Shown here: one piece after another, positions 36,491-60,459 of the stretch
Position numbering within the stretch: position 1 is the stretch's first letter
How the letters are laid out: each line of letters opens with the position of its first letter
Translations under genes and position numbers: made by a program
Virus record (IMG/VR): IMGVR_UViG_3300021387_000075
DNA length: 64,000 bases
Source of the DNA: a virus
Lineage: Duplodnaviria; Caudoviricetes
Reading direction: 5' to 3' (one strand)
The notes under the pieces: model-generated
Seen by the model: only the letters and a program-made list of their open reading frames with translations
Database searches by the model: none
Told to the model about the DNA's origin: nothing

Positions 36491-36628
36491 TTCCAGCTTA
36501 CCCCTTTCTCTCTCTTTCTGTAAAAATTATACCCTAAATTTGAGAAAAAGTCAAATATGTATACTGTATACAACGGGCCGGCTTAAAAATAAGAAAGGAG
36601 CCCACTTGCGTGGGCTCCTTGTAATTAC

Positions 36629-37117
36629 TTACGCCTTCGTGTAATAGGTTTTCTTGTCGTTTTCCTTAACGGAGGGAACTAGCACGCCCTTCTCCACTAG
36701 ACGCTTCGCGGCGGAACCGACCTGCATTACGAGTACGTTATCAGCAACGGACTTGCCTAGCGCATTGCGAATGTCGGTAGCGGTGTACTCAGCGAAAGCG
36801 GGTAGAGCGGCAATCTTAGCATCTAGCTCATCACGGCGAGCCTGAGCTTCGGGATTGGGGCCCTTAGGAGCCTTTGGACGAGCAGCGCGCTCGGCAGCTT
36901 TCAGAGCAGACTCAGCTTCCCAGGCCTTATACTCAGCGACAGCAGCTTCCATATTGAAAGCAGCGTGGTTCTTGGTGTCCTTGGCTAGTGCGACCTGCAC
37001 AGAAACCTTAGCGACACCGTCTTCACAGGGGACGACGATAAAGTTAGTCTTGTTGGCGCGGGCATTCTGAGCGCCTTCGATACCGGTTAGGATGGTTTTC
37101 AGTTCATTAATAGTCAT
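36629..37117 (-). CDS. protein with C-terminal winged-helix domain
   Basis: YTATDIRNAL..VGSAAKRLVEKGVL..TYY; own promoter and terminator. Confidence 0.7.
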   Translation of the reverse strand: MTINELKTILTGIEGAQNARANKTNFIVVPCEDGVAKVSVQVALAKDTKNHAAFNMEAAVAEYKAWEAESALKAAERAARPKAPKGPNPEAQARRDELDAKIAALPAFAEYTATDIRNALGKSVADNVLVMQVGSAAKRLVEKGVLVPSVKENDKKTYYTKA

Positions 37118-37612
37118 TTTTTACTCCTTTTTACTCTTGGGTTTAGTTACGGCAGACCCACCTGCACAAATTTTTTATTTCGTTCTCTTGGAACACTTAT
37201 ATTATATCAGAAATTTGCGGAAAAGTCAAATGTTTGGTTCGAGAAAACTTGGAATCCAGTAGTAAATTTTTCCAGCATTTGCAGCTTCGAGGTCTAGGCA
37301 CATTTGTTCAGCTTGCGCCAAACTTAAAGTTACACATTCAATTCCAGTTTCTGGGGAATCTTCCAGCTCCCAGACGATAACATAACATCGTTCCATTTTC
37401 CAGCTCCTTTCTCTTTACACTATAATTATACACGAAATTTGCGCGAAAGTCAAATACTTGATAAATGTTTTTTGGATACAATCCGCAGCTTTCCAAATTT
37501 TGCCTCGAATTTTCACGCCGACGGAAATTCAGCTTGCGGCGGGTCCTTATGTTCCAATATGTGGGCCGAATATCGCAGCTCGCCGCAGGCCGAAAATCGG
37601 TGGAATCGATTT

Positions 37613-37714
37613 TTCCAGCTTCCAGCTCGTATAGAGTTTCCAGCTTCCAGCTGCTCCGTTGATTTCTCGGGGCAACTTCCAGCTTCCAGCTTCTTCCAGC
37701 TTCCAGCTTGCAGC
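37613..37714. repeat. TTCCAGC heptamer repeats
   Basis: Eight perfect copies as four tandem pairs plus one variant. Confidence 0.85.
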
Positions 37715-37785
37715 TTATTATACTAGGGGCCCACGTAAGTGGCCTGGCGCCTTATGGGATAAGGCTCGGGCGCAGACTCGGTGCC

Positions 37786-37850
37786 GTAACACTTGTGTAA
37801 CAGGGTCGTAACACTTCTGTAACAATTTCGTAACAAAAATTTAACAATTG
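37786..37850. repeat. 11-bp phased GTAAC repeats x6
   Basis: Units start at 37786, 37797, 37808, 37819, 37830, 37841. Confidence 0.85.
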
Positions 37851-37954
37851 CGAGGGCTTGACTTGCGCTCGGCGGTGTGATAGAATATAATGGGGGAGAA
37901 GAGGGGTTGGACGGGCCGGCTAAAAATTGGCCGGCTAGTCGGGCCGGCCCGAGG

Positions 37955-38146
37955 TTAGCTTGCGCTAACCTCTTCGATAATAACGTTGGTAAGTTTATAT
38001 ACTTTAGTCATATCAAATTTACATCCGCACTTATCACAAGTACAAGTCCACCACTGTTCGCCACCGAATTGGTCGAAGCTATCGCCATAGTCATTTACCT
38101 CATAGTCTTCACACCCGCATTTTGGGCAAGTTTCACTGTACGCCAT
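37955..38146 (-). CDS. Zn-ribbon small protein
   Basis: CPKC..CDKC. Confidence 0.7.
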   Translation of the reverse strand: MAYSETCPKCGCEDYEVNDYGDSFDQFGGEQWWTCTCDKCGCKFDMTKVYKLTNVIIEEVSAS

Positions 38147-38483
38147 TTTCTTTTTCCTCCTTTTCCTTCGCTCTACGTTCCTTATCCTTCCGTGCCTTTT
38201 CGGCACGAGCCTTGGCATCGGCTTCCTTCTTCGCCTGCTTAGCGTTGTACTCGTCAATTTCCTTCTGCATAAGCTCTTCGGCGGTCATGTCCTCACGCTC
38301 TTCGGCAACAATAGCGCCGATACGCACGTAGCGCTGGACGCCATTCAAATCGGTCAGGAGAACGCCATACTGACGATCATTGACTTTGGTATAAGCGTAG
38401 TCAGTCGGATATCCGTGGAAAATATCCGCAAAGACTTTATCACGCAGTTCCTGATTGACAACAGTAGTAGAAATCTTAGCCAT
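38133..38483 (-). CDS. hypothetical protein with charged C-terminal helix
   Basis: Promoter plus conserved leader; resembles 43473-43880. Confidence 0.75.
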   Translation of the reverse strand: MAKISTTVVNQELRDKVFADIFHGYPTDYAYTKVNDRQYGVLLTDLNGVQRYVRIGAIVAEEREDMTAEELMQKEIDEYNAKQAKKEADAKARAEKARKDKERRAKEKEEKENGVQ

Positions 38484-38539
38484 CTCAATTCCCTTTCTGG
38501 TTTGGGGTGTTTTCCTTCACCTTTCATAAGTATTATATA

Positions 38540-38773
38540 TCATTCGGTTAGGCTTGTCAAGTCTTTTTTCACATTTTCTAATAATTTATAGAAGAAATTT
38601 CGGTTGTGCCATTTAAGTTGAAATTGCTTCGGGTCTATAAAGCTCTGTTCGGCACATTGATAATTAGTACACCAGTAAAGTTTTTTAGTCTCCTCATAAT
38701 ATATCCAGTCATAACCATGCGCTTTAACCCAAGCATCGGGGCATCCTACCCCTTTGTATCCATATGTTATCAT
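38540..38773 (-). CDS. hypothetical protein
   Basis: Own promoter at ~38808-38836 and RBS. Confidence 0.55.
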   Translation of the reverse strand: MITYGYKGVGCPDAWVKAHGYDWIYYEETKKLYWCTNYQCAEQSFIDPKQFQLKWHNRNFFYKLLENVKKDLTSLTE

Positions 38774-38972
38774 AAGTTTCCTTTCTTTCTCTTCATCTTT
38801 CATATATATTATAACCTAAAATTTGTTACAAGTCAATAGTTAATTGTGTTACAATTCTGTTACAAATTCGCGGGCCGGCGGGCGAAAACTTAACACATTT
38901 GTAATAATTTTGCTATTGATTCGTAATTGCTTTTCTGCTATAATAAGAGCGTGGAAAGGAAGGTGCTAAGAG

Positions 38973-39473
38973 ATGCGTAACACTTACGAAGTTCGGGCTG
39001 AGAAGTTCATCCATCAGATTTTTAACTATATCTGGGAGTGCGAAAATGTTGATGACTATGAGTGGGCGGTAAATCACTTCAATTTCGAACACCACCGCAA
39101 CGTGAAGGTGGTCCACGGCCTGACTCGGGTGGCGCTGATTACCTCTGACTATGTGGTGAAGATTGATTGCGGTCGTGCCCACGATCTGGATACGTTCGGC
39201 GGTTGTGCCAACGAGTTCGATATCTACGCACAGGCCGAAGAGGATGGCTTCGCCTACCTCTTCGCTAAGCCCACAGAGGTTGTATATAATGGCCTGACCT
39301 TCTGCGTGATGCCCCGTATCCGTGGCATTGAGCGTGAACCTAATGACGCTGATTGGTATATGAGCGCCGAAGAGTGCGACTGGGTTTGTGAGCGGGTGTT
39401 TGATCTCCATAATGGAAATTATGGTTGGAAAGATGGCCATCCTGTACTGATCGACTATGCGGCGAATTGCTGA
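38973..39473 (+). CDS. minimal protein-kinase-like protein (166 aa)
   Basis: G..R.A..YVVKI, NE, DLHNGN catalytic loop, LIDY metal-binding motif. Confidence 0.75.
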   Translation: MRNTYEVRAEKFIHQIFNYIWECENVDDYEWAVNHFNFEHHRNVKVVHGLTRVALITSDYVVKIDCGRAHDLDTFGGCANEFDIYAQAEEDGFAYLFAKPTEVVYNGLTFCVMPRIRGIEREPNDADWYMSAEECDWVCERVFDLHNGNYGWKDGHPVLIDYAANC

Positions 39474-39574
39474 TGTTAGCTTCGGCTAACATTGGCCGGC
39501 GCGCCGTTGGATACTGTATACAATAGAAGCGCAAAGAAAAATCCCCACGATTGCCTGCGTGGGGTCAGTCTCCA

Positions 39575-39646
39575 TCTCGTTTATTGTTTGCCCAACGAGA
39601 AAGGGCATTCTGGAAAGGGGCTTTAAGGTTCAACCCCTTAGAACCT
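39575..39646 (-). ncRNA. two tandem H-type pseudoknots in 3' UTR
   Basis: AGGUUC/GAACCU with AAGGGGUU/AGCCCCUU; UGCCC/GGGCA with UCUCGUU/AACGAGA; terminator at 39537-39564. Confidence 0.65.
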
Positions 39647-39652
39647 CGGGCA

Positions 39653-39973
39653 TTAGCCCTTGAGGGTGTAGGCGTTGACCTTGCCCTCAATCTTCTCGAC
39701 CTCATTGGCCCAGTAGTTCCGCAGACCGTAGACGATCTTGCCCTTGGCGTAACCAGTCTCGTCCGCCAGTTCCTGAGCGGTCACGGGAGCGGTAGCGGAC
39801 TTCAGAGTCTCGATGACCGCATCGTGAATCTCCTCGTAGATTGCCCGATTCGCCTGCGCCTTAGTCTCACCCTTGGCCAGTTCGGCAACGATCTCGTCAT
39901 AAACATTCATCAGTTCGGCGATGTTGTGGTCGTTGATGTAGGAAGCGATGGTCTGCATAGTGGATTTCTTCAT
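39653..39973 (-). CDS. winged-helix protein, paralog 1
   Basis: PVTAQELADE..KGKIVYGL..W..EVEKIEGKVNAY. Confidence 0.8.
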   Translation of the reverse strand: MKKSTMQTIASYINDHNIAELMNVYDEIVAELAKGETKAQANRAIYEEIHDAVIETLKSATAPVTAQELADETGYAKGKIVYGLRNYWANEVEKIEGKVNAYTLKG

Positions 39974-40091
39974 TGTATAATTCCTTTCTGGTTTTTTAAG
40001 AGTTTTCCTTCTCTTCATCTTTCGTAGTTATTGTATCATAAGTTTGGAAGTTTGTCAAGAGGTTTCCGAAAATTTTCTCCCTTTTATTTTC

Positions 40092-40160
40092 GGTCAAGAG
40101 AATCATCGGGTCTTGCGTTTCCATGGAGATTTGTTTCCGCTCCCGTTCTCCCTCTCAACA
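40092..40160 (-). ncRNA. candidate promoter-driven hairpin ncRNA
   Basis: Own consensus promoter; GUUGAGAG/CUCUUGAC and CGGG/CCCG stems; no RBS-led ORF seen. Confidence 0.45.
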
Positions 40161-40744
40161 TCCTTATTATATCAGATTTCGGGGAGTTTGTCAAGGGTTT
40201 TTTCAACTTTTTTTCAAAGTTTTTTTCGCCCTCGGGAAGCTCGCTCCCTTCACCTGACATATATAATTATACTCGAAATTCGGAAAAAGTCAAGCACTTT
40301 TTTTGAAGAATACTGTATACAATCGCGGGCCGGCCAAAATGGACCGAAGTCCATTATAGCACGAATCGAACAATCGGACGATCTTTCTTAGAGTACCGAG
40401 CAAACACCATAAACCGCAACCAGAGGGCTTTCATTATGGGAAGATAGCGGACAGTCTGTTCTCCTTCAAGGTTTTTCAGATACACATTCATTTTGATGTT
40501 CCTCCTTCAAGAAAAAGCTGAAATCATTCATAATACATTCATAAGCGAAAAAGCAACTTTCGTCCGCATGGCACAGGGCGCATTTCCTGCACTTGCTTGA
40601 ATTGGCTACGACTTCCCACAAGTAGGCATTGAGTGTTTCCATAGTTTCCATCTCCTTTCAACATAGACATTGTATCATAGAAAAGGAAAACTGTCAACAG
40701 GAAAATTATTACAAAAGTATTAAATCGTGCCGGCGCGAAAGGGC

Positions 40745-40978
40745 TTACGCCCTTTCGTCATACAAAGTAAAATCATCAACCTCACGCACAAAGCCGCAAG
40801 CATTGTCAATGAAGGTAAAGCCATTATCTTTGGCTTTGAGAATCAAATCATTCATATCCTTGCGAAGGATCGCTTCTTCACGCTTACGGGTGCGGATAGC
40901 ACGAAGATTGTTAATAATGGTAGTCAGTTCCTCATCACTCATGTTGTCTGTGTCAATCATAATCTTGCCAATTCTCAT
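40745..40978 (-). CDS. hypothetical protein
   Basis: Single-gene cassette with promoter and terminator. Confidence 0.7.
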   Translation of the reverse strand: MRIGKIMIDTDNMSDEELTTIINNLRAIRTRKREEAILRKDMNDLILKAKDNGFTFIDNACGFVREVDDFTLYDERA

Positions 40979-41078
40979 TCGGGGTACCTTCCTTTCCTTT
41001 CGATACTTATATTATACTCACTTTTGCGCCAATGTCAATAGGAAAATTATTACAATTCTGTTAAATGCGCCGGCGGCC

Positions 41079-41744
41079 TCACTTGGAAGCCTTGGCACGC
41101 AAGGCTTCCAAGCATTTAGTAAAAATCTCTTTTTCAATTTCTACATCTTTAAGTCCTGTATGTGATTCAACAAAGTCATTGTTCTTACTAATATATCTCC
41201 AAAGCACTTCTGCGGTGAAGCGAGGGCGAGGGGTGGCGTGGTTTGTCATGTATCCGTTTTCCTTACAGAACGCAATATATTGTGGGTCATTACCAAATAC
41301 TTTCTTAGACAGTTTCAAGCTGTCAATAACTTTCATCCCATAGGGCAAGAAATACCGCTTTCGGGATTTAGTCTGGTAACGCATAGTGGCGTTAAGGGTT
41401 TGGATATCAAATCTGGAATTGTGTGCCACCACCGCCTGAACGTTGTACTTTTCGCACAGTTCTTTTACCGTATTATACATGCCCCACGTATCCACGATTT
41501 TGTGATTACCCATCCGCATGTCTTCAATGTATTTCGGGATTTTTTCGGCATAATATGCATCCTGCATCTGTTCGGGCATCCGAAAGAAAACATCCTCATT
41601 AATGACGCTGAAACGTGCTTTCTCCTCCCCATACTCATTGATTACCGCACCGCCGAGATCATAGACCTGACCGTTTTTTACATCCAGTTGTCCATCTACT
41701 ACGGGAGTGTTACAAGTTTCGCTATCAAATACCAAGAAGTTCAT
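41079..41744 (-). CDS. DEDDh 3'-5' exonuclease, paralog 1
   Basis: FDSET, AHNSRFD, HTGLKD. Confidence 0.88.
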   Translation of the reverse strand: MNFLVFDSETCNTPVVDGQLDVKNGQVYDLGGAVINEYGEEKARFSVINEDVFFRMPEQMQDAYYAEKIPKYIEDMRMGNHKIVDTWGMYNTVKELCEKYNVQAVVAHNSRFDIQTLNATMRYQTKSRKRYFLPYGMKVIDSLKLSKKVFGNDPQYIAFCKENGYMTNHATPRPRFTAEVLWRYISKNNDFVESHTGLKDVEIEKEIFTKCLEALRAKASK

Positions 41745-41880
41745 TGGAGTTACCTTTCTGGTTTGCGTTGTTTTCCTTCAACTTTCAAGTATGATTATAC
41801 CACGGAAAATAGAAATGTCAATAGGTATTTTGTTACAAAAGTATTAAATCTGCGGGCCGGCCGAGTTAGCGAGTGCTAAC

Positions 41881-42150
41881 TCATTTGAGAAAGCACTCAT
41901 ACCAAGCATAGTCGCCCCACGTGCCATTATTTACTACCTCGGTCTTATAGTCTTCCCACGCCTGCTCTTCGCCCTCTTCGGTGTTGGGGTAATCTCGATC
42001 TTCAACCCAAGAGTTGAAGTCCCGTTCTACAAACCAACCATAACGGCGCTCATCCAACCATTTGAAACATTCGTCCATAACTTTATCGAAATCAGTATAG
42101 GCAACCTGCGGTTCGCCTTCAAGAGTAATGACATAAATACGAGTAGCCAT
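41881..42150 (-). CDS. acidic aromatic-rich hypothetical protein
   Basis: RBS AGGAGG. Confidence 0.65.
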   Translation of the reverse strand: MATRIYVITLEGEPQVAYTDFDKVMDECFKWLDERRYGWFVERDFNSWVEDRDYPNTEEGEEQAWEDYKTEVVNNGTWGDYAWYECFLK

Positions 42151-42161
42151 ATTATCCCTCC

Positions 42162-42419
42162 TTAGCAATCATCGGTATACATTCCAAGATAAGGGTCAAA
42201 GCCCATATCATAGTCTTCATCATAGTTATCATCGGGAGTATCATCATAGGAAAGCCATTCGTCCCACGAGTCGAAGAACATTGCGAAGTCCTCGCAATCT
42301 TCCATTGGGTCATCAATGTGGCACACGTTGCACTGGTCGCAATAGGGGCAAGCGCCATAAGCATTGACAGTGCAGTAAGTGGTTTCACCGTTGTAAGTTC
42401 CCTGTTTTGCGTCTCTCAT
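42162..42419 (-). CDS. Cys-rich, very acidic small protein
   Basis: CPYCDQCNVC; Asp-rich tail. Confidence 0.65.
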   Translation of the reverse strand: MRDAKQGTYNGETTYCTVNAYGACPYCDQCNVCHIDDPMEDCEDFAMFFDSWDEWLSYDDTPDDNYDEDYDMGFDPYLGMYTDDC

Positions 42420-42669
42420 ACTAATACTCCTTTCAATCTGGCTCTGGCCTGTTTCCGTAAGCGCTTTTTCAGTTTCCGCATAGAGGGTGTGCTCTGGTTA
42501 ATCCACTTGCGGCATCCTTTATCTAAATCCCAAGCGGCGAGTTCATCAAACTTCTTGTATCTCGCTCTCTGCATCTCTCATCCCTCCTGACACTATTTAT
42601 TATACTCAGATTTGAAAAAAAGTCAATAGGTAAAATTGTTAAGTTTTTGTTACGCGCCGGCCGCCCGCC

Positions 42670-43359
42670 TCACTCCTCATCGAGTTCGGCAAGGCGTGCC
42701 ATTTTCTTATGCCTGCGGACGCACTCTGCGAAAATCTGCGCTTCAATTTGTACATCCTCTAACCCCGTGTGACTTTCTTCAAAGTCATTGTCGTTGGTCA
42801 GAAAGCGCCACAGAATTTCGGCAGTCTTACGCACCTGAGGGGTCTTGTGGTTGGTCATATATCCATTCTCTACACAGAACCGCCGATAGTTGGACTGCTT
42901 GCAAATGGTATCATTCGCCATAGTCATAGTATCCCAAATCGGGATACCATACGGGAAGAAAAATCTACGCTTGCTCTTGGTCTGATACCGAAGGGTTGAG
43001 TTTAAAACCCTCACATCAAATCTGGCATTGTGGGCAATGAAAGCCTTGATTTCATACTGTGCCACGAGTTCCCGCACAATCTTATACAGTTGCCAAGTAT
43101 TGACGATCTGGCGCTTGCCCATCCGAATATCGGTTAAGTACTGGGGAATTTTATCCGCAAAGTATGCTTCACGCATAGCTTCGGGCAGTCCGAAGAATAC
43201 ATCTTCATTCACAAAGGACATTTCCTTATACACAAAGCCCTCATTGTCTACGATTTGAAGGCCGAAGTCATAAACCTGACCGCAAGTCGTGTCTAACTGT
43301 CCGTCTACCTTCGGGGTGTTACAAGTCTCAGTATCAAATACCATATACAGATTCTTCAT
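42670..43359 (-). CDS. DEDDh 3'-5' exonuclease, paralog 2
   Basis: FDTET, AHNARFD, HTGLED; alignable end to end with 41079-41744. Confidence 0.88.
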   Translation of the reverse strand: MKNLYMVFDTETCNTPKVDGQLDTTCGQVYDFGLQIVDNEGFVYKEMSFVNEDVFFGLPEAMREAYFADKIPQYLTDIRMGKRQIVNTWQLYKIVRELVAQYEIKAFIAHNARFDVRVLNSTLRYQTKSKRRFFFPYGIPIWDTMTMANDTICKQSNYRRFCVENGYMTNHKTPQVRKTAEILWRFLTNDNDFEESHTGLEDVQIEAQIFAECVRRHKKMARLAELDEE

Positions 43360-43472
43360 TGCGTTTCGCTCCTTTCAACATAGCCATTATATCACTTTAT
43401 AGGATGCGTGTCAACCCCTTTTTGAAAAAAATTTTCGCGCCGGCCCGTTAGTCACGACTAACAAGAAAAGGG

Positions 43473-43880
43473 TCACGCCTGGGGCGTGACCTTAATCTTG
43501 CGGAGTTCCTTCAACCCCTTGTTTGCTTCCGCAAGGGCTTTCTTTTCCTCACGGGCTTTCTGGTCTTTGGCAATCTTGGCCTGCTTCTTCTCTTCGGCCT
43601 TGGCTTTCTTCTGCGCCTTTTCTTCAAGGTCAATCTGGTAATCTTCGGCGACAGAATAGCCATCATAAGGGATGTATCCACCGTTGCCATCACGAGCGCC
43701 ACGAGGGATAGACACCTTAATCACCGCCCACGTTTCATTGCCATCGGGATCAAGGCAAGGCACCGCAATCTCGTTGGCGCTCACCGCAAGCGCATCCGTG
43801 GCCTTTTCGGTTTCAATCGCCTTAGCAATCAGGGACAGGAAGTCGTTACGAATCGTGGTTTCCATCTGGGCTTTAGTCAT
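43473..43880 (-). CDS. hypothetical protein with Lys/Glu-rich C-terminus
   Basis: Own promoter; resembles 38133-38483. Confidence 0.75.
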   Translation of the reverse strand: MTKAQMETTIRNDFLSLIAKAIETEKATDALAVSANEIAVPCLDPDGNETWAVIKVSIPRGARDGNGGYIPYDGYSVAEDYQIDLEEKAQKKAKAEEKKQAKIAKDQKAREEKKALAEANKGLKELRKIKVTPQA

Positions 43881-44129
43881 CTAACATCGCTCCTTTCGTT
43901 CTTACAGGAAGATTGTATCACACTTTGTCGGGGTTGTCAAGGGGTTCTTGAAGATTTTTTTCGATCTTCTTTCCTCTTGATCTGGATATATTATACTATA
44001 AATTTTGAAGTTTGTCAAGAATTTTTTTAAAAGAATACTGTATACAATTTTGGCGGGCCGGCTCCAGTTAGCTATGGCTAACTAGCGCCGATAAGAAAAG
44101 CCCACCTTGCGGTGGGCGATAGGTCAGGA

Positions 44130-44462
44130 TTAGCGCCGAGTGTAGGAATTAACCTTGCCCTCGTGCTTGACCACATCCTTATCCCAGTAGTGGCCCAGAG
44201 CGTACTGAACCTTGGCCTTGGTGAAGCCATCAGGGAGAGACTCCTTCACAGCTTCATAGATCTCAGCGACCGTGGCGGGATACTCCGTATCCAGAGCGCC
44301 ATAGACTACATCCCAGGCGGTCTCATACAGCTCACGGTTGGCCTGAGCTTTCTCAGCTCCTTTGCTCAGCTCAGCTTTCAGCTCGCTCCGCACCGCTTCG
44401 GCTTCGGGAGTCTCGATGGTGGCAATCAGGGACAGGATGGTGTTCATAGTGGTCTTCTTCAT
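44130..44462 (-). CDS. winged-helix protein, paralog 2
   Basis: PATVAEIYEAV..TKAKVQYAL..W..VVKHEGKVNSY. Confidence 0.8.
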   Translation of the reverse strand: MKKTTMNTILSLIATIETPEAEAVRSELKAELSKGAEKAQANRELYETAWDVVYGALDTEYPATVAEIYEAVKESLPDGFTKAKVQYALGHYWDKDVVKHEGKVNSYTRR

Positions 44463-46406: not shown

Positions 46407-46514
46407 TCGATCAACTCCTTCCGTTTCTGTACCTGTATTATAGCATAGAGTTTCGGGAAAGTCAATAGTTTGATGTTACATTTTTCTGACATCGCTGGCC
46501 GGCGCGAAACCGAA

Positions 46515-47633: not shown

Positions 47634-47744
47634 GGTAAGTTTCCTTTCTGGTTTGGGAGGTGTCCTTCCTCTTTGTGTATTCATTATATCACTTTCGTGA
47701 TCTAATGTCAAGGGTTTCGGGAAAATTTTTTTTGATATTACGTT

Positions 47745-47835
47745 CGGGAAAGTCGCCACTTGCGCCTGTGGGATTGGGGGATCAGTCCCGACCTTCCCGT
47801 TCTTTCAGAGGGTGATCCGCTCTCCCTCTGACATT
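47745..47835 (-). ncRNA. candidate ncRNA (hairpin + 3-way junction)
   Basis: Own promoter; UCAGAGGG/CCCUCUGA and CGGGAAGGUCG/CGACUUUCCCG. Confidence 0.5.
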
Positions 47836-47899
47836 GTCATTGTATCACACCCCGTGGGGTTTGTCAAGGGGATTTTCAAATTTCTTTGAAAATTTGTTT

Positions 47900-47958
47900 C
47901 GTTACCGTGTGTCCGCAAACAGGAGTGCCTTTCGGCTTATCTCCTGTCCCCTTGGAAC
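47900..47958 (-). ncRNA. candidate ncRNA
   Basis: Own promoter; ACAGGAG/CUCCUGU with GCC-GAAA-GGC; 5' end resembles the 45872 unit. Confidence 0.45.
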
Positions 47959-48055
47959 GATATAAGTATATCACAGATTTCATATTGAGTCAAGCATTTT
48001 AGGAAAAAAAGATTGATAACTTTTTCACAAAGTCGGGCCGGCGCGCAGAAGGAAA

Positions 48056-48283
48056 TTAGATTTCCTTTGCGTAATACACCAGACTCATACCAGTTTCGGG
48101 AGAACAGTTGTAATAATGAATCGCATTACACATCTGCTCGAAGGAAACGGAATTGTCTTCGGGCTTTTCAATCCATCCTGCCAAAGAGCTTGCGGTGTTA
48201 ATACGGTTCGGGAGAACCATAATTTCTTTTCCTTCGTTATAGAGCTTTCGGGCCATACCTTTCGTGATTTTAATCATGATCAT
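48056..48283 (-). CDS. hypothetical protein
   Basis: RBS AAAGGAG within cassette. Confidence 0.65.
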   Translation of the reverse strand: MIMIKITKGMARKLYNEGKEIMVLPNRINTASSLAGWIEKPEDNSVSFEQMCNAIHYYNCSPETGMSLVYYAKEI

Positions 48284-48481
48284 TCTCTCCTTTCAATTCG
48301 TTGAGAAACTTTTCCAAATTCCACTCTTCATTCTTCATTCGCTGAAGGATTTCCTGATTCTCCAGAAGTAGTTCATCAATCGTCATCGCGCACCCTCACT
48401 TTCTGAATGTATTATATAATAGAATTATAGAAAAGTCAAGTAGAAAATTATTACAAAATTGTTAATTTGCGCCGGCGCGCC

Positions 48482-49134
48482 TTAGCGGTCGCGCTCCGCA
48501 TAAGCGTCTAAGAAGGTTTGAACGTATGCTGATGCCTTATAACCGCTTTCCAATAACTCACAATAATGGTCGTCTTCACGCACAATGTTTTCTAACTCTT
48601 CACAAATGTCATCGAGCAAAGATCGCACCGCTTCGATCTTATCAAGTGCGCGGTTATCAATACGTATTGACTTTGAGACTTCTACCAGTGACATTTTTAT
48701 TTCTCCTTTCACATTACATCATACATTTTAAGAATACGCTCAACCTTCGGAACATCCTGCGCCCGACATGTTACCACAAAGCGGATAGTATCGGATTGCC
48801 GATTGATCTTGAAGTCTCCAACGCTACATCCGACCCGCTCGATAACCACGTTCATAATGTGGTGCCCTACCCGATTGCGAGGAACATAATAAATGCGTGT
48901 AACCATCATTCATCACTCCTTTTAGTGTCATTAATCCCATTCTCTTCCAATGTTTGAAGCGAGAAACCTGTTTTCATATTTGACATCAACAGAGAAGTTA
49001 TATCCACCTTCAGTAATAGCCTGCTGATGGCGCTTCTCTAAATCTGCTTTACTATCACAATAGTAAGCATGGCTTTTTTGATATTCATCATCAAATGGGT
49101 CATCAGTAACCCAATTTAGTTTATAGCGAGTCAT
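48482..49134 (-). other. three small co-transcribed genes (48482-48694, 48709-48909, 48931-49134)
   Basis: Each has an RBS; one cassette between GCCGGC at 48471 and 49377. Confidence 0.65.
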
Positions 49135-49386
49135 TCATCAAATTCCTTTCCCTTGTGTTTCGGTTTCTTAAACCGCTTGTCGGGGATAATGCGAGTGACG
49201 CAATACCCCTGTGGAAACTCTTTACGCTCGGACTGGAAGACTTCCACCCAAGTTTTCGGTTGCTGTTTCTTCGTGCGCTTACTCATCGTCTCACATCTCC
49301 TTTCGACATTGTTATTATAACAAATTGTGTGTTACAAGTCAATAGCCAAATTGTTACAATTCTGTTAAATTGGCGGGCCGGCACGG

Positions 49387-49623
49387 TTACTCCCGTGCCA
49401 TTACTTCCTCATAGTCAAGGCCTAACCATTCACACACAATTTCAAAGTCAAAGCGCATGAAGTCGTTAATCTCCTCAACGGACCACGGTTCATCGCCATT
49501 CCTGACTTCTTCCATCATGCTTTCAAGAACATCCAATTCCTCAGAGGTAAGCTTAGCGGCATTAGTTGCGGCCGCGCTCCAAAAGTCAAAGTCCCTCAGA
49601 CTCTTTTCAATCGTCATTGTCAT
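49387..49623 (-). CDS. acidic small protein
   Basis: FDFWSAA..LTSEELD..INDFMRF; RBS. Confidence 0.7.
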   Translation of the reverse strand: MTMTIEKSLRDFDFWSAAATNAAKLTSEELDVLESMMEEVRNGDEPWSVEEINDFMRFDFEIVCEWLGLDYEEVMARE

Positions 49624-49889
49624 GATACATACTTCCTTTCATTAATTCTCATCAAAGGCTATACCGAAACCGCCGAGAACAAGGCCAGGGACACAGCCCC
49701 AAAGCCATTGATTCCCCATAAAGAAACCGACCAGAAAGAAGAAACCAGTGAGGAACAACCCGAAACCGCAAGCAACCTTTTCCATAAGCTCCCCTCCTTT
49801 GATATATAAAGTATATCATAATTTTAAAAAAATGTCAAGCATAAAATTTGGGCCGGCCCGTGTTAGCCGAGACTAACAGAGGATCCGAA

Positions 49890-50123
49890 AAAAAGCCACC
49901 CATTCGGGTGGCGATGGGGATGGTCTTCACGAGATGAATCCCTGCCTCTTTCAGATCCCCGCAGGTGCTGCCTCGACATTTGAACCCTTTCGGATCCCAG
50001 TGCTCGCCACACTGTATACCGCACCATCTCGCTCTTTCGGCGTGCGGTTGGTTCATCGGGAATGGTCTTACTGACTCTCGTGGGTCTCACCCGCTTTGGG
50101 CTTTGCCTTCCCTCACCCTGTGC
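49890..50123 (-). ncRNA. candidate ~235-nt highly structured ncRNA
   Basis: TTGACA(50151-56)-N17-TATAAT(50128-33); several GAAA-capped stems; terminator at 49888-49912. Confidence 0.6.
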
Positions 50124-50177
50124 CTGTATTATATCACAGGCGGTCGGTCGTGTCAAGTACTTTTTGAAACTTTTTTT

Positions 50178-50290
50178 GAGGCTGAGCGCTCTCCGAAATA
50201 GCGGGCGCTCATTTGATGGTCTTATGCGGTCTACCTGTGACCTTGGCAGTCTCACTCTGGTTTCTCACAGCGAGCCTTCCGCCAACCTCG
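50178..50290 (-). ncRNA. candidate multibranch ncRNA (~110 nt)
   Basis: Consensus promoter 50296-50324; GAGGUUG/CAGCCUC closing stem and three arms. Confidence 0.55.
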
Positions 50291-50344
50291 GGGCTATTAT
50301 ATCACGGTCGGTCGTGCTTGTCAAGGGGTTTCCGAAACTTTTTT

Positions 50345-50455
50345 TCGGAGAGTGCGGTGGGGTTGAGGACATTCCGAGTCTCGCCATACTGTCTCGGAAC
50401 TTAGTTTTTTACATGGTCCCTCGGTCCACCGCTGGAAGGGTTTCCCCTCCTGACA
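50345..50455 (-). ncRNA. candidate long-hairpin ncRNA
   Basis: Own promoter; nested GCGGUGG/CCACCGC and UUCCGAG/CUCGGAA stems. Confidence 0.5.
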
Positions 50456-50568
50456 TGATTATAATACCACAAGAGGGGAGAAAAGTCAATTACGAAAGTC
50501 TAAACTAATTGTCATACTTTCGTAACATTTTCGGGCCGGCTCGGCCCACCCGATGGGTGGGCTTTTGC

Positions 50569-50853
50569 TTATTCTTCGGGCATGAATCCCGCATAATGGG
50601 CGACAACAATTTCATCATCATAGATCGATTCGGTTTCCATATCGTCCATCAGCAGAGCGCCAATGTCTCCAATGAACCAGTCTTCGATTCCTTCCATTAC
50701 CCACAGGTCTTGGTTACAATCTTCGAAGATAACCAGATCGTTTTCATAGTCCAGATCAGTAACTACGCCAACAGCGGGATACACATCAGCGCAGGCGCTT
50801 ACAGCAGTCAGCAGGGCAATCAGGGTCAGGGTCAGTGCAATCAGCTTCTTCAT
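50569..50853 (-). CDS. secreted acidic small protein, paralog 1
   Basis: Signal peptide; similar to 53665-53949. Confidence 0.75.
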   Translation of the reverse strand: MKKLIALTLTLIALLTAVSACADVYPAVGVVTDLDYENDLVIFEDCNQDLWVMEGIEDWFIGDIGALLMDDMETESIYDDEIVVAHYAGFMPEE

Positions 50854-50951
50854 TTCGGTTTACCTTCCTTTCTTTTCCCTCTTGGGATGGCTTCATTATA
50901 TCACAGCTTCGCTCAGCTGTCAAGCCCTTTTTTCGGGGCTGGCTGGGCTTT

Positions 50952-51395
50952 TTAGCCCAGCCGAGCCAGCGTCCGCTCGTTGGTGAGCTCAGCCCCATCG
51001 AGCTTGACCTGAATCTCAACCCCGTCCACCCGGATGTCGCCAGCTACCCAGAAGGGGACGCTGTCCTTGACCCAGGTCTCGGAGGTCCAGCGCTCGGTCA
51101 GCTCCCGCTCGAAGTTTTCGCCCTTGTTGTGGTCGGGGTCAGCGGTCAGCAGGTTCTCGGATCCCAGCAGCTCCGCCGTGGCGCTCAGCTCAGCACGGTC
51201 CTTGGCGGTCAGCTTGATCCGGATCTTGGCGAACCCGCCCCGCTTGGAGCTGGCCCGGTCCAGCTTGAAGAAACGGCTCAGCTCCTCAAAGCTCATACGC
51301 TGGGCGTAAAGGTTGCCGTTGGCTACAAAGCCCAGAGCGTAAGTGTGGGCGCCCGCCCGCTCGTTGTACTTGGTCATCATTTCGGTCATCGTCAT
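50952..51395 (-). CDS. PD-(D/E)xK/Mrr-like fold protein, paralog 1
   Basis: GENFE..GDI..IQVK. Confidence 0.6.
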   Translation of the reverse strand: MTMTEMMTKYNERAGAHTYALGFVANGNLYAQRMSFEELSRFFKLDRASSKRGGFAKIRIKLTAKDRAELSATAELLGSENLLTADPDHNKGENFERELTERWTSETWVKDSVPFWVAGDIRVDGVEIQVKLDGAELTNERTLARLG

Positions 51396-51689
51396 CGTGG
51401 TCAACCCCTTTCCTTTACTGTACCTGTATTTTACACCATAAAGCCGGAGTTGTCAACCCCTTTTTGAAAAAAAGTTATTACAATTTTCTTAACTAATTGC
51501 CCGCCGGCTGTAACAATTTGTTTAGACTTTTGTAACAATTTTCCTCTTGACAGCGCGCCTTCGGCGTGCTAAAATGTTAGTGGTGGAAGAGGGGCCTTTT
51601 ATATATACTTTAGTATGCTAAAGCGGTGCCCGGGCCGGTCCAGTTACTTTCGTGCTTTAGCGTGCTAAAGTGTGGCCGGGCCGGCAAGT

Positions 51690-51770
51690 TTGACTTTCTT
51701 TGACTTTCAGAAAAGATAGGCAGGTTCGCCGTGGGTCCCAGTCTTCTTTTGCCTCCCCTGATCTGATTAT
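51690..51770 (-). ncRNA. candidate ncRNA, paralog of 54590-54645
   Basis: Own promoter; shared GCAAAAGAAG-N4-GGACCNACGGC core. Confidence 0.45.
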
Positions 51771-51889
51771 ATTATAACAGACCCGGGTCGGGATGTCAAC
51801 CCCTTTTTGAAAAATTTTTTTTACTATTTTTAGGGCCGGTCGGATCCCTGCGCTGATCCCGTCTGCCGGATCGATCCGAGGGTAAAAAA

Positions 51890-51965
51890 AATAAGGCTGT
51901 TTTTTCTGGTGGGCCACCTCTTGCCTTTCGGCGCCCTTTAGGAGTTGCCTTATCTCTCCCACTGA
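51890..51965 (-). ncRNA. candidate ncRNA
   Basis: Own promoter; AUAAGGC/GCCUUAU closing stem, GCC-GAAA-GGC, U-tract. Confidence 0.45.
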
Positions 51966-52100
51966 TGATATGATATCATAAGTGGGTGAAAATGTCAACC
52001 CTTTTTTGAAAATTTTTTTCAAAAAAAAGTTTCGCCGGAGGGGTTGACAATTCCATATAAATGTGGTATATTATAGTCACAGAAAGGGAGGTGCTACCGA

Positions 52101-52529
52101 ATGAGGATTTGGTTCGACATGGACGGAACAATCGCTGATCTGTATGCGGTGAATGGATGGCTCGATGATATTATCGCCGAAAATACCCGCCCGTATGAGT
52201 GCGCTAAGGTGCTCCACAATATGGCTCATCTGGCGCGGTTGCTGAATAAAGCCCAGAAAAACGGTCACGAAATTGGGATCATCTCATGGACGGCGAAAAA
52301 CGGCAAGCCCGAATACAATCGGGCGGTTGAGATGGCAAAAAAGGCTTGGCTGAGAAAGCATCTTCCTTCTGTTCATTGGAATGAGATTAAGGTTGTCGAA
52401 TATGGTACCAATAAGTACAACGCCTGCGGTGGTGGTATCCTGTTTGACGATGAGGAGGAAAACCGTGAAACCTGGGGCAAGGGCGCTCATGAACCGAAAG
52501 AAATTATAGAAATTTTGAAAAAGATTTGA
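52101..52529 (+). CDS. HAD-family nucleotidase-like, paralog 2
   Basis: DMDGTIADLY..LFDD; similar to 45969-46406. Confidence 0.85.
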   Translation: MRIWFDMDGTIADLYAVNGWLDDIIAENTRPYECAKVLHNMAHLARLLNKAQKNGHEIGIISWTAKNGKPEYNRAVEMAKKAWLRKHLPSVHWNEIKVVEYGTNKYNACGGGILFDDEEENRETWGKGAHEPKEIIEILKKI

Positions 52530-52594
52530 AAAAGGGGTTGACACCCGGCGCAATCTGTGATACACTTATATCATCAAAGAGGGAGGTTAAGGCA

Positions 52595-52723
52595 ATGACT
52601 TACAAGGTGCGAGAGCTGGTAAATGGGCGGTTCGGGGTTTATGAGTGCTCTGAGTGGCGGGAGACTCTGGTAAAGACCTTCAAAACCCGTCAGAGTGCGG
52701 AAAAGTGGATCAGCAAGCGCTGA
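52595..52723 (+). CDS. 42-aa protein, paralog 1
   Basis: Promoter and RBS; MTYKVRELVNGRFGVY..KTFKTRQSAEKW. Confidence 0.7.
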   Translation: MTYKVRELVNGRFGVYECSEWRETLVKTFKTRQSAEKWISKR

Positions 52724-53520
52724 TCCACCCGCCGAAAACTTTTTTCAAAAAAGTTTGAAAAAAGGGTTGACAAATCCGGCAAAATGATATATACTTATAT
52801 CATCAAGAGGGGGAAACCCCAGAAAGGCGGTACCAAATGAAGTACGTTGAGAACACCATGGAAGCCCTGATTGAGAAGGCCCTGCGGGAGATGGAAGAGA
52901 AGGGCGAAAAGCTCCCCGAGATCCGGTACGACGAAGGGCGCTAAGCCCTTCGGCCGGATCGGGCCGGTTATATGATACAAAAATGCTGTTTTTTTGTTAG
53001 CCATGGCTAACAAGTACTCGCACTCTCCCCTGTCCCTCCCCTCGGTGCAATTGTATTATAGCATACCGGCCCGAGATTGTCAACACTTTTTTCAAAAAAA
53101 ATTAAGCCGTGATCCTTAGTGGATCACGGCCACCACGATTCCCGTGGTATCGGTTTCAAGGTGGATCACCTCATCCCAGAGGTCGCGCGCCTCGATCCAT
53201 CTAATGGCCTCGCGGATATCGGTTCCGATTACTTTATCGCTCTCATGCATTGCTTCTCGCTCCCTTCTTTTGATAGTTATATTATAGCATAAAGTTGAAA
53301 AAAGTCAAGACTTTTTTATAATGGAAAAAGCCCTTTTTCTTTTGATCCGGGACTTTAGCAAACTAAAGTATCGGACCGGGCCGGCTACATTAACGTTAAT
53401 GTAACTGGGATCCCGGGCATTAACGTTAATGTAAAAAAGTAAAATAAAATTGAAAAAAGGTGTTGACAGACCGGACGAAAGGTGATATACTTATATCATC
53501 AAAGAGAGGAGGACACCGAG

Positions 53521-53610
53521 ATGATGGACTGGTACATGAACCCCGAGATTCACGAAGAAGACTACGAAGAGCTGATGGCTCTTCTGGCCGAGGAGGAAGA
53601 GGAGGATTGA
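53521..53610 (+). CDS. 29-aa acidic peptide
   Basis: Promoter, RBS AGGAGG; MMDWYMNPEIHEEDYEELMALLAEEEEED. Confidence 0.55.
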   Translation: MMDWYMNPEIHEEDYEELMALLAEEEEED

Positions 53611-53664
53611 CTCCTCTTCTTCCCCCTGAGAAGGACTTGACAGATAACGAAGGAGGACAAGACA

Positions 53665-53949
53665 ATGAAGAAGGCAATGATGATTCTGGTGGCGCTGATC
53701 CTGACGATGGTGGCTTTAACCGCAAGCGCTGAGATTTATCCCAAGACCGCTAAGGTGATCGAGGTAAATTATGATGAAGATCTGGTTACTATTGAGACCT
53801 GTACAGGAATAACCTACACTTTCGAAGGATGCGAAGATTGGGTTGAAGGTGATGGCGTTTCCCTGATAATGGAAGACAACGGAACAGAGTCAATTCTTGA
53901 CGATTGTATCCTAATGGCTGAATATACTGGATGGACTCTTGAACACTAA
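53665..53949 (+). CDS. secreted acidic small protein, paralog 2
   Basis: Signal peptide; YP..V..YDEDLV..G.EDW..GD..LIMEDN.TESI.DD. Confidence 0.75.
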   Translation: MKKAMMILVALILTMVALTASAEIYPKTAKVIEVNYDEDLVTIETCTGITYTFEGCEDWVEGDGVSLIMEDNGTESILDDCILMAEYTGWTLEH

Positions 53950-54109
53950 GGGCCAAAGGCCCTTTTCTTTATGTGTATGTGTTACCTATGACTAACAAGG
54001 CCGGCACATTAACGTTAATGTAAAAAGCTCACTTTTTTTCATTTACCCTATTGACTTTTTTCGCTTTATCGTATATACTTATATCATCAAAGGACGGAGG
54101 TACGAGAGA

Positions 54110-54238
54110 ATGACTTACAGAATTTATGAACTGGCTAACGGACGGTTTGGAGTATATCAGATGACCGAGTCCCTGATGGTGCTGGTGAAAACCTTCAAGA
54201 CTCGGAAGAGCGCCGAAGGATGGGTTAGCAAGCGCTGA
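54110..54238 (+). CDS. 42-aa protein, paralog 2
   Basis: MTYRIYELANGRFGVY..KTFKTRKSAEGWVSKR. Confidence 0.7.
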   Translation: MTYRIYELANGRFGVYQMTESLMVLVKTFKTRKSAEGWVSKR

Positions 54239-54589
54239 CCCATCCCGAAAAAAAGTTGTTGACAAACCCGGCAAGATGTGATACTATATAGTCACAGGGA
54301 GGAACCCTGAAACGAAAGGAGACCGAAAAATGTACGAGATCATCAACCTGACCACCAAGGCCACCGAGGGAATCTTTGCCACCTATGAAAGCGCTGTGAA
54401 TTGGGTCAAGGCCCACGGCGACGCCAAGAACTTCCGGATCCTTCCGTGGTGATCCGGAAGCCGATCCGGCGCACAGTACTAACTAAGCCGGCTGGACCGG
54501 CCCTAACATTAACATTAACGTTAATGTAAAAAGTTGATTTTTTTTAAAAAAAGGGCTTGCATTTTTCCCTAACTTGTGATAATATAAAG

Positions 54590-54645
54590 ACAGATGGGAG
54601 GAAGCAAAAGAAGGTCCGGACCAACGGCAGAAGACCCCTTTTTTA
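54590..54645 (+). ncRNA. candidate ncRNA, paralog of 51690-51770
   Basis: Promoter-like region upstream, U-tract end, shared core. Confidence 0.4.
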
Positions 54646-54776
54646 AGATGTCGGATCCGGTACCAAAATTCACATCAAAAAAATTCAAAAAAAGTGTTGA
54701 CAAACCGGAATATATGAGTATAATAGTGTATGTAAGGAAGAGGTACGGAAAGTACCTGATGAAGGAGGAAGAAACA

Positions 54777-54995
54777 ATGGAAATTATCGAAATGCTGGAC
54801 AACTACGGATTCATCACTGTTGACGGTCTGGAAATCACCGTGGCGGACTTTGTCGGATTCGATGATGACTGGTCTGAAATCTACGATGAAGAGTATGAAG
54901 CGCTTGATGATGATGATCTGGATACCCTGTATATGATTCTGGAAGATCTGGAAGCGCTGGGCTACACCATCCACTGGACTCATGAGGATATCTAA
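54777..54995 (+). CDS. extremely acidic 72-aa protein with no Lys/Arg
   Basis: Consensus promoter, RBS AGGAGG, composition. Confidence 0.7.
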   Translation: MEIIEMLDNYGFITVDGLEITVADFVGFDDDWSEIYDEEYEALDDDDLDTLYMILEDLEALGYTIHWTHEDI

Positions 54996-55147
54996 TCCTC
55001 ATGAGCCCCCGGTACTTTCACTTACTAAAGTGTCCCGATCCGGAGAACAGCGGTAAAATTTTTCAAAGAAATTTCAAAAAAAGGGTTGACAAACCGGCAC
55101 AAAGGCGTTATAATCTATCTGTAAGATGAATCAAGGAGGTAACCACC

Positions 55148-55597
55148 ATGACCGCTGAAATGATGAAAATCCTGTACAACGCCCTCTCCGCTTCTCACCT
55201 CTACATCCTCGGGTTCATGGTTCAGAATGTTCTGTATTACACCATGATGGACTTCGAAAAGCTCGCCGGGTTCATGAAGATGGACAGAATGAGCACCGCA
55301 AAAGGTGGATGGGCAAAGCTCCGGATAAAGCTCACCACCGCACAGAAGGCCGAACTGCTCAAGATCGCCACAAGGTGCGGAACGGTGGAAGATCTCACCG
55401 CAATGGAGAAGTACAACAAAGGTGAGAACTTCGAAAGGATTATCACCGAACTTCTCACCGGGGAAAGATGGGTAAAGGATAGCGTCCCCTTCAATGTGGC
55501 CGGAGACATTGTCCTAAACGGTGAGAACGTACAGATAAAGTTTGACGGCGCAGAGATAACGAATGAACGGTTACTAACAAAGCTCACCGCAAGGTGA
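55148..55597 (+). CDS. PD-(D/E)xK/Mrr-like fold protein, paralog 2
   Basis: GENFE..GDI..VQIK; similar to 50952-51395. Confidence 0.6.
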   Translation: MTAEMMKILYNALSASHLYILGFMVQNVLYYTMMDFEKLAGFMKMDRMSTAKGGWAKLRIKLTTAQKAELLKIATRCGTVEDLTAMEKYNKGENFERIITELLTGERWVKDSVPFNVAGDIVLNGENVQIKFDGAEITNERLLTKLTAR

Positions 55598-55619
55598 GTT
55601 TTCTTTATGCCCATTATAT

Positions 55620-60454: not shown

Positions 60455-60459
60455 GGTTT

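Follow-up and report, generated by a model that had tools for sequence, protein, structure and literature searches.

The stretch analysed here is a 64,000-nucleotide window from a virus of the Caudoviricetes (IMG/VR record IMGVR_UViG_3300021387_000075), to which all coordinates refer. Its central feature is a dense run of small early genes punctuated by the palindromic hexamer GCCGGC (Table 1). The hexamer occurs 28 times, all copies lie within 36577-54492, and none is found elsewhere in the 64 kb. With an open reading frame (ORF) call that takes Shine-Dalgarno sequences into account, 28 of 28 sites are intergenic. Both observations agree with the first-pass annotation, which had been made from the letters alone. 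Dinucleotide-preserving shuffles of the window contain a mean of 9.1 copies and a maximum of 16. A Markov estimate gives about 2.3 copies for the other 44.7 kb of the window, where there are none; because so few are expected there, the signal is one of enrichment within the block and not of avoidance outside it.

The block is set apart from its surroundings by its genetic code. Under the standard code the largest ORF in the window is 443 amino acids (aa) long. With TAG read as sense, an ORF of 3120 aa appears (12636-21998, with 34 in-frame TAG) and many others open outside the block, while the block itself is nearly unaffected; the terminase gene contains 10 in-frame TAG. TAG has to be read as an amino acid for the genes at 1-36250 and 56400-64000, and the early block uses the standard code. 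No suppressor tRNA was detected within the window, for which the tRNA search was empty, and no Rfam families were found there. The block contains 105 matches to sigma-70-like promoters, where 29.6 +/- 4.3 are expected; many are perfect (12/12) and have an extended -10 box. The terminase of the window matches only the general phrog_2 family, and through it 98 related IMG/VR contigs were collected, of up to about 190 kb and some with terminal repeats. The stretch itself is present in ruminant gut metagenomes of several studies. A megablast search of the block and the late region against deposited phages gave no match, and the matches of a block protein in bacterial genomes are few and lie on contigs of metagenome-assembled genomes (MAGs), three of which are Acutalibacteraceae. 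The code switch, the host-type promoters, the adjoining sigma-factor-like, terminase and portal genes, the ruminant-gut occurrence and the MAG matches together identify the block, on sequence grounds, as the host-RNA-polymerase early region of a large (~180 kb) ruminant-gut phage that is TAG-recoded in its late genes. The host of this phage is probably a member of the Clostridia.

The block had been described as a series of units, each consisting of hexamer, operator-like motif, promoter, leader, small genes or RNAs, and hairpin. This order is real when the minus strand is read from 36.5 to 51.5 kb and the plus strand from 53.4 kb. The RNAs remain unsupported, because the window holds no tRNA and no Rfam family; the units contain 1-3 small genes. 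In the direction of transcription a junction consists of the gene end, sometimes a T-run terminator, a hairpin, 0-6 nt, GCCGGC and a few G/C bases. An A/T-rich UP-like tract and/or a palindromic box follows the hexamer, and then TTGACA-17-TGnTATAAT, a leader, a strong Shine-Dalgarno sequence and the start codon. The 3' hairpin often has the form (N)GTTAG(N)-4 nt-(N')CTAAC(N'), and the boxes between hexamer and promoter include AATTGTAACAATT, TGTATACAGTATACA, ACATTAACGTTAATGT and others. The box classes at 38800-51600 and 53380-54560, namely AATTGTAACAATT repeats, TGTATACAGTATACA, TTGTGAAAAAGTTATCAATC and ACATTAACGTTAATGT, are added in ~11-nt steps. Many leaders (44590-44610, 45210-45230 and others) have in common a GTTCCAAGGGGAAC hairpin that lies after the -10 box and before the Shine-Dalgarno sequence.

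The same junction was analysed in 16 arrays from related contigs, which contain 438 sites, 243 of them orientable. A perfect hairpin ends 0-11 nt before the hexamer at 172 of the 243 orientable sites. The hairpin arms covary, the innermost variable pair being Watson-Crick in 72% of cases against 32% expected, across T:A, A:T and C:G. Distances between hexamer and -35 box have a multimodal distribution that peaks at ~12, 23, 34 and 45 nt, and the periodicity is strongest at 10.5-11 nt. The ~11-nt steps reflect the addition of modules, which are a proximal A-tract, a complete UP-like tract, an operator and one further element. The spacers between hexamer and promoter are represented by 242 different sequences among 243, and the invariant part of the junction is limited to the six bases, whose flanks are merely G/C-rich. 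At junctions with both hairpin and promoter the exact hexamer is found 138 times, compared with 22 for all 18 one-mismatch variants together; 14 of these 22 differ at the two outer positions, and 107 junctions have neither the exact word nor a variant. Descent or gene conversion alone would have kept the flanks as well, and as these are not kept the hexamer appears to be singled out. It marks the boundaries of full cassettes and not promoters as such, because 21 of the 38 strongest block promoters have no upstream hexamer (they are mostly internal and mostly without an upstream hairpin) and the hexamer at 39495 has no promoter. Tandem hexamer pairs, of which there are 51, are separated by 5-15 nt of UP-like fragments and look like truncated units.

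The strictness of the hexamer bears on the idea that it is simply a GC-rich physical insulator between the hairpin and the UP tract, or a site read by a factor of the host, with the co-inherited protein described below being an unrelated core gene. The G/C-rich flanks would suit an insulator. However, a physical clamp needs no six exact bases, and it would not lead to 138 exact copies against 22 one-mismatch variants amid 242 different spacers.

Hairpin and hexamer could also form a single 3'-end signal at the level of RNA, acting in termination, processing or stabilization, with the DNA palindrome being incidental. The hexamer lies 0-6 nt after the hairpin and is oriented with transcription, and the covarying arms behave like a folded stem. 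T-runs accompany 29% of the junction hairpins in the hexamer arrays and 42% of those in hexamer-free relatives; the difference counts for such a signal, but it is small, and the impression that the hairpins of the hexamer arrays are devoid of T-runs was reduced to this weak difference. In at least six junctions of the window a canonical T-run terminator precedes the GTTAG hairpin and the hexamer, which would thus lie mostly beyond the end of the transcript, and a palindrome has no obvious meaning in a single RNA. RNA-library contigs of the sample that is the probable source of the window cover the block unevenly and one bridges two junctions, which counts against a 3'-end signal without being conclusive, as contigs cannot show transcript ends. 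An RNA-level role is therefore considered very unlikely.

The hexamer is not common throughout the genomes of related phages, where it again forms local clusters. In G002, 32 of 36 sites lie in 16.6 kb of 94.6 kb, in G004 29 of 31 lie in 14 kb, and in G037 38 of 40 lie in 15.4 kb. No array is present in eight relatives whose genomes are complete or almost so, and these contain only 4-13 sites in 164-190 kb. In the terminase tree array-positive and array-negative contigs are found as sister tips, with terminases that are nearly identical. Sister pairs stay collinear, at 92% identity, until the array begins; within it, only gene-sized patches of 70-83% identity remain, in shuffled order. The hexamer thus belongs to one type of early module, which is swapped as a whole. 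The GTTAG hairpin is likewise specific to the positive type, with 3-45 copies compared with 0-3 in the negatives (permuted control 0-1). The array-negative sisters keep the cassette layout, with a terminator and then a single 19-bp operator, TTAGATGTaatACATCTAA, whose distance to the -35 box is constant. This palindrome is located ~9-10 nt upstream of almost every early -35 box (L108-L111; G007 and G008, for example the promoters of L110 and L111), and it is a candidate operator of a module-specific repressor. The suggestion that close relatives lacking GCCGGC use another GC-rich word was rejected, as CGCGCG and GCGCGC lie mostly within genes and reflect Arg/Ala codon usage.

One protein family of ~150 aa is inherited together with the hexamer, and the window encodes two paralogs of it. 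Of all array genes, only this family occurs in most positive arrays (13 of 15) and in none of the 19 negative flanks. Among 41 contigs, exactly the 16 with large arrays have it, in 2-3 copies, and 0 of the 25 others do, including 8 that are at least 93% complete. In one contig binned to a MAG, whose member is 66% identical, 23 sites fall within 12.4 kb, where 1.9 are expected. The family comprises 556 cluster representatives, almost all of them stand-alone proteins of about 150 aa. It is nearly absent from bacterial genomes and is essentially phage-only. No match to the family was found among Pfam, PHROG or PDB sequence profiles. The first-pass annotation had offered a nicking or protein-loading signal as an alternative to cassette shuffling at the hexamer, and this alternative gains support from the co-inherited family.

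An AlphaFold model of the ~150-aa protein was obtained with high confidence (pLDDT 95, pTM 0.87), and searches of BFVD and the ESM Atlas with this fold returned only its own family of viral hypothetical proteins. Across members that are 25-52% identical, N93, E99, D123 and K134 are invariant and Q132 is nearly so. The E..D..QxK residues are located on a helix-strand-strand-strand-helix segment in the C-terminal half of the model. A search with language-model features found as nearest named clusters almost only restriction enzymes (PD-(D/E)XK) and Hjc-type nucleases, with scores of 0.81-0.87 that are below threshold. The motif resembles the PD-(D/E)XK nuclease signature, with Q132 in place of the middle acid, and is regarded as a lead and not as a result. 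A prediction of the homodimer scored 0.00, which counts neither way.

Viral contigs encoding members of the ~150-aa family were compared to see which word accompanies the protein. Contigs with copies at least 46% identical to those of the window carry GCCGGC arrays. Other contigs carry CCCGGG (L164-L166, with members 30-32% identical, and also L148, L152 and L157), and members on CCCGGG or GCATGC phages are 30-43% identical to those of the window. In L164 and L165, the contexts of which were inspected, CCCGGG occupies the junction position of GCCGGC and often follows the same GTTAG hairpin; its phasing to the -35 box is not significant (n=16). L145 has clusters of GCATGC(ATG) in intergenic regions. 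Between 6600 and 19500 of this contig there are 27-32 GCATGC, mostly as GCATGCATG runs in tandem clusters that are less regular than the GCCGGC and CCCGGG arrays. GCCGGC is absent from the short contigs L112-L116, which encode distant family members. The distribution of hexamers along the protein tree fits co-evolution of word and protein and also fits shared ancestry alone.

These comparisons complete the case for and against a host factor or an insulator. That the protein is linked to the hexamer by co-occurrence in a module inherited as a block, and that family members exist with no obvious hexamer nearby, would both be expected if the family were unrelated to the mark. However, an insulator does not predict different exact palindromes in different lineages, and a host factor is difficult to reconcile with sister phages that have 92%-identical late regions and probably common hosts, yet differ in the hexamer. 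A mark read by the host, or by nothing, is accordingly held to be unlikely.

The array is made of cassettes whose order and content vary between related phages, as had been proposed, and the rearrangements end in junction elements. Homology between arrays is confined to cassette-sized blocks in differing order, and paralogs are scattered among the units, for example the DnaQ-like and NT5C-like pairs and the pair of the 150-aa family. The inversion of the unit at 38874-39500 between two hexamers is confirmed, and the unit carries a plus-strand promoter of its own. It is not a recent flip, because it is also inverted relative to its neighbours in two relatives, and the inversion is thus an old arrangement. 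The ends of homology blocks lie within 5 nt of a hexamer in 7.5% of cases against 2.8%, an enrichment of ~3x, and the boundary on the promoter side is sharp. As proof of crossover at the hexamer these ends were rejected: all promoters are alike, and alignments extend to the last conserved element wherever the crossover was.

Recent events could be resolved in the only close set, G001/G020 (96-99% identity), using three-way alignments in which the hybrid copy was set against the two flanking copies. Four cassette indels were found, two with crossovers in the UP/-35 region and two with crossovers in the conserved leader CCTTTCTGG. None of the four crossovers lies in the hexamer; they are 20-150 nt away from any copy or, in two cases, have no copy nearby. 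The alignments show these recent, resolvable events as homologous recombination between repeated promoter or leader sequences. The conserved leader CCAGAAAGG is the crossover site in two indels of the relatives. A further deletion, in contigs of two other samples (X4 and X10), removes exactly the cassette of the T5orf172 gene. One edge is the last base of the hexamer at 46498, and the second lies 6 nt short of the hexamer at 47241. The joint contains three filler letters and shows no shared homology, and the empty site keeps two hexamers 9 nt apart.

In the first-pass annotation the array had been viewed as an integron-like platform with recombination at the hexamer. That view is not supported, given that the base-resolved indels break in promoter or leader repeats and not at GCCGGC, that no recombinase was detected and that each cassette has its own promoter. 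The complete array-bearing relative G001 allowed the rest of a genome to be searched, and as in the window none was found: tyrosine recombinases (PF00589) and Y1 HUH transposases (PF01797; IS200/IS605, REP/RAYT type) are absent from G001 and four other relatives, with the recombinase controls giving hits, and no serine recombinase was detected in G001.

A related proposal is that GCCGGC is the joint of a cut-and-rejoin system, in which identical cohesive ends would let cassettes excise, insert and invert like those of an integron but without attC. Several features are as such a system would leave them. Every full unit has the palindrome on both sides, the ends of the inverted unit coincide with two sites, and 51 hexamer pairs stand in tandem. 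The ends of homology blocks cluster near the hexamer, one edge of the X4/X10 deletion is the last base of a hexamer with filler in place of homology, a candidate endonuclease-like protein co-occurs, and GCCGGC and CCCGGG have the core CCGG in common. However, all four base-resolved recent crossovers are in promoter or leader repeats, the sharp homology ends are confounded by the likeness of the promoters, and the inverted unit is ancient. Simple cutting and ligation also predicts one hexamer at the empty site of X4/X10, which retains two, and there is neither a detected recombinase nor a link to a ligase. Direct rejoining at the hexamer is therefore rated as distinctly improbable.

The sites might instead be decoys or methylation targets of a host or phage restriction-modification system that recognizes GCCGGC. 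GCCGGC, CCCGGG and GCATGC are classic type II recognition sequences. Outside 36400-55700 other palindromes are strongly avoided, with TCGCGA found once and TGCGCA 3 times against 16 expected for each, and GATC and CATG are about two-fold low there. The avoidance of TCGCGA and TGCGCA suggests restriction pressure on the phage. However, GCCGGC itself is not significantly avoided outside the block (0 against 2.3 expected), and a role as decoy leaves the fixed position between hairpin and promoter unexplained. In addition, the arrays are not accompanied by methyltransferases of the C5 or N4/N6 type (PF00145 and PF01555), both of which are absent from G001. Restriction-modification is the least probable of the explanations considered and is regarded as extremely unlikely.

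The explanation favoured here, with a probability of roughly 0.55, is that the array consists of shuffled cassettes resembling the promoter-early stem-loop (PeSL) cassettes of other phages, and that GCCGGC is a strict boundary mark read by the co-inherited ~150-aa protein. The hexamer would then be not a crossover site but a strict recognition site at cassette boundaries. Its reader would be the phage-encoded protein, present as 2-3 paralogs and inherited with the module. Divergent relatives of this protein would accompany another hexamer in the same intergenic regions, either CCCGGG at the same junction position or clusters of GCATGC. The E..D..QxK motif may indicate a small enzyme like a restriction endonuclease, and the reader might hold the hexamer tightly, serving as a boundary or roadblock, or it might nick or cut there. 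The X4/X10 deletion, with its edge at a hexamer, and the 51 tandem pairs speak for a nuclease-like reader. Breaks at the boundary could stimulate exchange in the flanking repeats. Such breaks would be expected to be repaired by annealing or recombination in the promoter and leader repeats on either side, and the position of the hexamer would then agree with that of the mapped crossovers.

Several observations weigh against this explanation. The link between protein and hexamer is one of co-occurrence, and since the early module is inherited as a block, any core gene of the module type would co-occur with the hexamer in the same way. The hexamers are distributed along the protein tree according to phylogeny, a pattern that shared ancestry would produce by itself. 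The association is also imperfect: G026 lacks a family gene and has a cluster of 4 sites, the 8 sites of G035 run up to the end of a contig whose available part encodes no member, no word is evident at several low-GC loci that encode family members, and in L112 the UP tract follows the hairpin without anything in between. The confident model matches no solved structure (PDB: Foldseek E >= 0.28, VIA Z <= 3.0), and for this reason the PD-(D/E)XK reading rests on the motif and the sub-threshold feature search. As no methyltransferase accompanies the arrays, an enzyme that cuts the hexamer would attack its own genome at 28 sites unless the DNA were modified in another way. Finally, the resolved recent crossovers number only four, all from one lineage that is not that of the window.

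A bolder form of the favoured explanation is that these phage-only, restriction-like endonucleases nick or cut their own cassette boundaries and so drive exchange, with enzyme and hexamer co-evolving across GCCGGC, CCCGGG and GCATGC. This is doubtful at present. If true, it would be a natural case of self-targeted, 'restriction-site-delimited' modular gene shuffling, operating via promoter repeats or by direct cutting and rejoining.

Table 1. Features of the early block and its right flank, in window coordinates
Feature	Position	Strand	Remarks
Early-gene block	36278..55614	minus 36.3-51.5 kb, plus ~51.5-55.6 kb	standard code; ~25 autonomous cassettes
Plain GCCGGC at junctions	36577..36582, 40329..40334, 40729..40734, 41069..41074, 41856..41861, 42656..42661, 43439..43444, 44057..44062, 44689..44694, 45280..45285, 45951..45956, 48037..48042, 48471..48476, 49377..49382, 50535..50540		
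Three tandem GCCGGC (37915, 37930, 37943)	37915..37948		9- and 7-nt spacers; two can pair into a terminator-like hairpin
GCCGGC between two divergent promoters	38874..38879		common to both promoters
GCCGGC 3' of the hairpin ending the plus-strand unit	39495..39500		downstream promoter absent
GCCGGC	46498..46503		cassette deletion of runs X4 and X10 has one edge at the last base
GCCGGC	47241..47246		second edge of the X4/X10 deletion lies 6 nt before
GCCGGC	49852..49857		-35 box 13 nt on, the shortest spacing class
GCCGGC at the divergence point	51503..51508		between promoters 51456 (minus) and 51547 (plus)
GCCGGC after a CTTTAGC..GCTAAAG-type hairpin	51680..51685		
GCCGGC of plus-strand units	53380..53385, 54000..54005		followed by ACATTAACGTTAATGT palindrome
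GCCGGC of plus-strand unit	54487..54492		
GTTAG-N6-CTAAC 3' hairpin, example	41865..41880	-	beside the hexamer
Other GTTAG-type hairpins	start 37954, 39475, 43447, 44067, 45290, 45963, 49862, 52996		
Cassette promoter, example	41794..41821	-	TTGACA-16-TATAAT, extended -10; 34 nt downstream of hexamer 41856, with a AATTGTAACAA-type operator between
Gene of the inverted unit	38973..39473	+	166 aa, no family match; own plus-strand promoter 38916-38944
DnaQ-like exonuclease-related gene	41079..41744	-	paralog 42670-43359
NT5C-like deoxyribonucleotidase gene	45969..46406	-	paralog 52101-52529, plus strand
T5orf172/GIY-YIG-like gene	46515..47189	-	cassette 46504-47234
~150-aa family, paralog A (P0003)	50952..51404	-	150 aa, no known fold; candidate hexamer reader
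~150-aa family, paralog B (P0004)	55148..55597	+	149 aa; last gene of the block
Sigma-factor-like gene	56469..57761	+	TAG-recoded; immediately right of the block
Large terminase	58583-60454		right of the sigma-factor-like gene
Portal	60451-61989		right of the sigma-factor-like gene

Most of the cargo has no Pfam or PHROG match. The T5orf172 cassette is found in 1 of 15 related arrays and is the one missing from the contigs of the two other samples. The divergence zone at 51680-53380 contains few called genes, repeated CTTTAGC-N-GCTAAAG hairpins with GGCCGG-type arms and several consensus promoters. It may encode small RNAs; the Rfam search of the zone returned nothing. The sigma-factor-like protein to the right of the block matches phrog_5767 (E 5e-16), and its C-terminal ~50 residues also match zinc-binding modules of the HNH/endonuclease VII type. 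Outside the block, a gene for a tRNA-His guanylyltransferase (Thg1-like; 24239-25009, minus strand; phrog_4717, E 1e-86) has no TAG codon in this stop-recoding phage.

The closest parallel to the array is found in the PeSL cassettes, which occur in the hyperplastic regions of T4-type phages (PMC2839356, PMC4122927). Arbiol et al. (2010, PMC2839356) and Comeau et al. (2014, PMC4122927) describe a PeSL as a stem-loop, an AT-rich tract and a consensus sigma-70 early promoter that flank orphan genes. Homologous recombination between these elements is held there to account for the indels and replacements that distinguish close relatives. The present array similarly combines a consensus sigma-70 promoter and an AT-rich upstream tract (105 promoter matches against 30 expected) with a stem-loop, a putative terminator, upstream of the promoter at 172 of 243 oriented sites; 29% of the junction hairpins have a T-run. 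Here too the elements flank orphan genes in a hypervariable region, the array being far more divergent than its flanks between sisters, and the four indels have their crossovers in UP/-35 or leader repeats. The setting is different, namely an apparently unrelated group of TAG-recoded ~180 kb ruminant-gut phages with Gram-positive-style promoters. Furthermore, an invariant palindromic hexamer stands between stem-loop and promoter, for which the PeSL text consulted describes no counterpart, and this hexamer is lineage-specific, being CCCGGG or GCATGC elsewhere, and co-inherited with a dedicated protein family. The array thus appears to work like PeSLs, which is a likeness in working and not an assignment to that class.

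Integrons are similar in that small mobile gene units are separated by a recurring junction element with a hairpin-forming inverted repeat. However, no IntI-type tyrosine recombinase was found here, the junction is a simple hairpin of 16-20 nt with a 6-bp palindrome and not an attC of 57-141 bp, each cassette has its own near-consensus promoter in place of a common Pc, and the mapped crossovers are homologous and not site-specific. The host-takeover module of SPO1 and the pre-early and early regions of T5 are dense in small early genes, with a strong host-type promoter and a terminator for each group. The dense early-gene run described here adjoins late genes, and those regions adjoin late genes or the genome end. 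Neither is known to have invariant hexamer punctuation or a co-inherited reader protein.

PvuII is a small type IIP PD-(D/E)XK restriction endonuclease of about 157 aa. The candidate reader is of similar size (~150 aa), has the invariant E..D..QxK and has restriction enzymes as its feature-based neighbours. The sites also resemble those of type IIP enzymes, in that they are exact 6-bp palindromes, conserved in an all-or-none manner, with a word that varies by lineage. The protein differs in having no structural match to any solved PD-(D/E)XK protein, and the system differs from type II restriction-modification in having no cognate methyltransferase. The family is also essentially phage-only, and the sites are concentrated in the early region of the phage itself.

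The early regions of phages are the main reservoir of as yet unknown host-takeover and counter-defence genes, and the basis of their fast turnover is only partly understood. The array described here carries the PeSL principle beyond T4-type coliphages, into a large group of TAG-recoded phages of the ruminant gut that are uncultivated. A boundary mark that is palindromic, exact and specific to a lineage, and that is exchanged along with the whole early module and a dedicated protein, has not been described before. If this protein reads or cuts the hexamer, it would provide a molecular handle on programmed plasticity, or on the insulation of densely packed promoters, and the ~150-aa family could be a source of new sequence-specific DNA-binding or DNA-cutting proteins.

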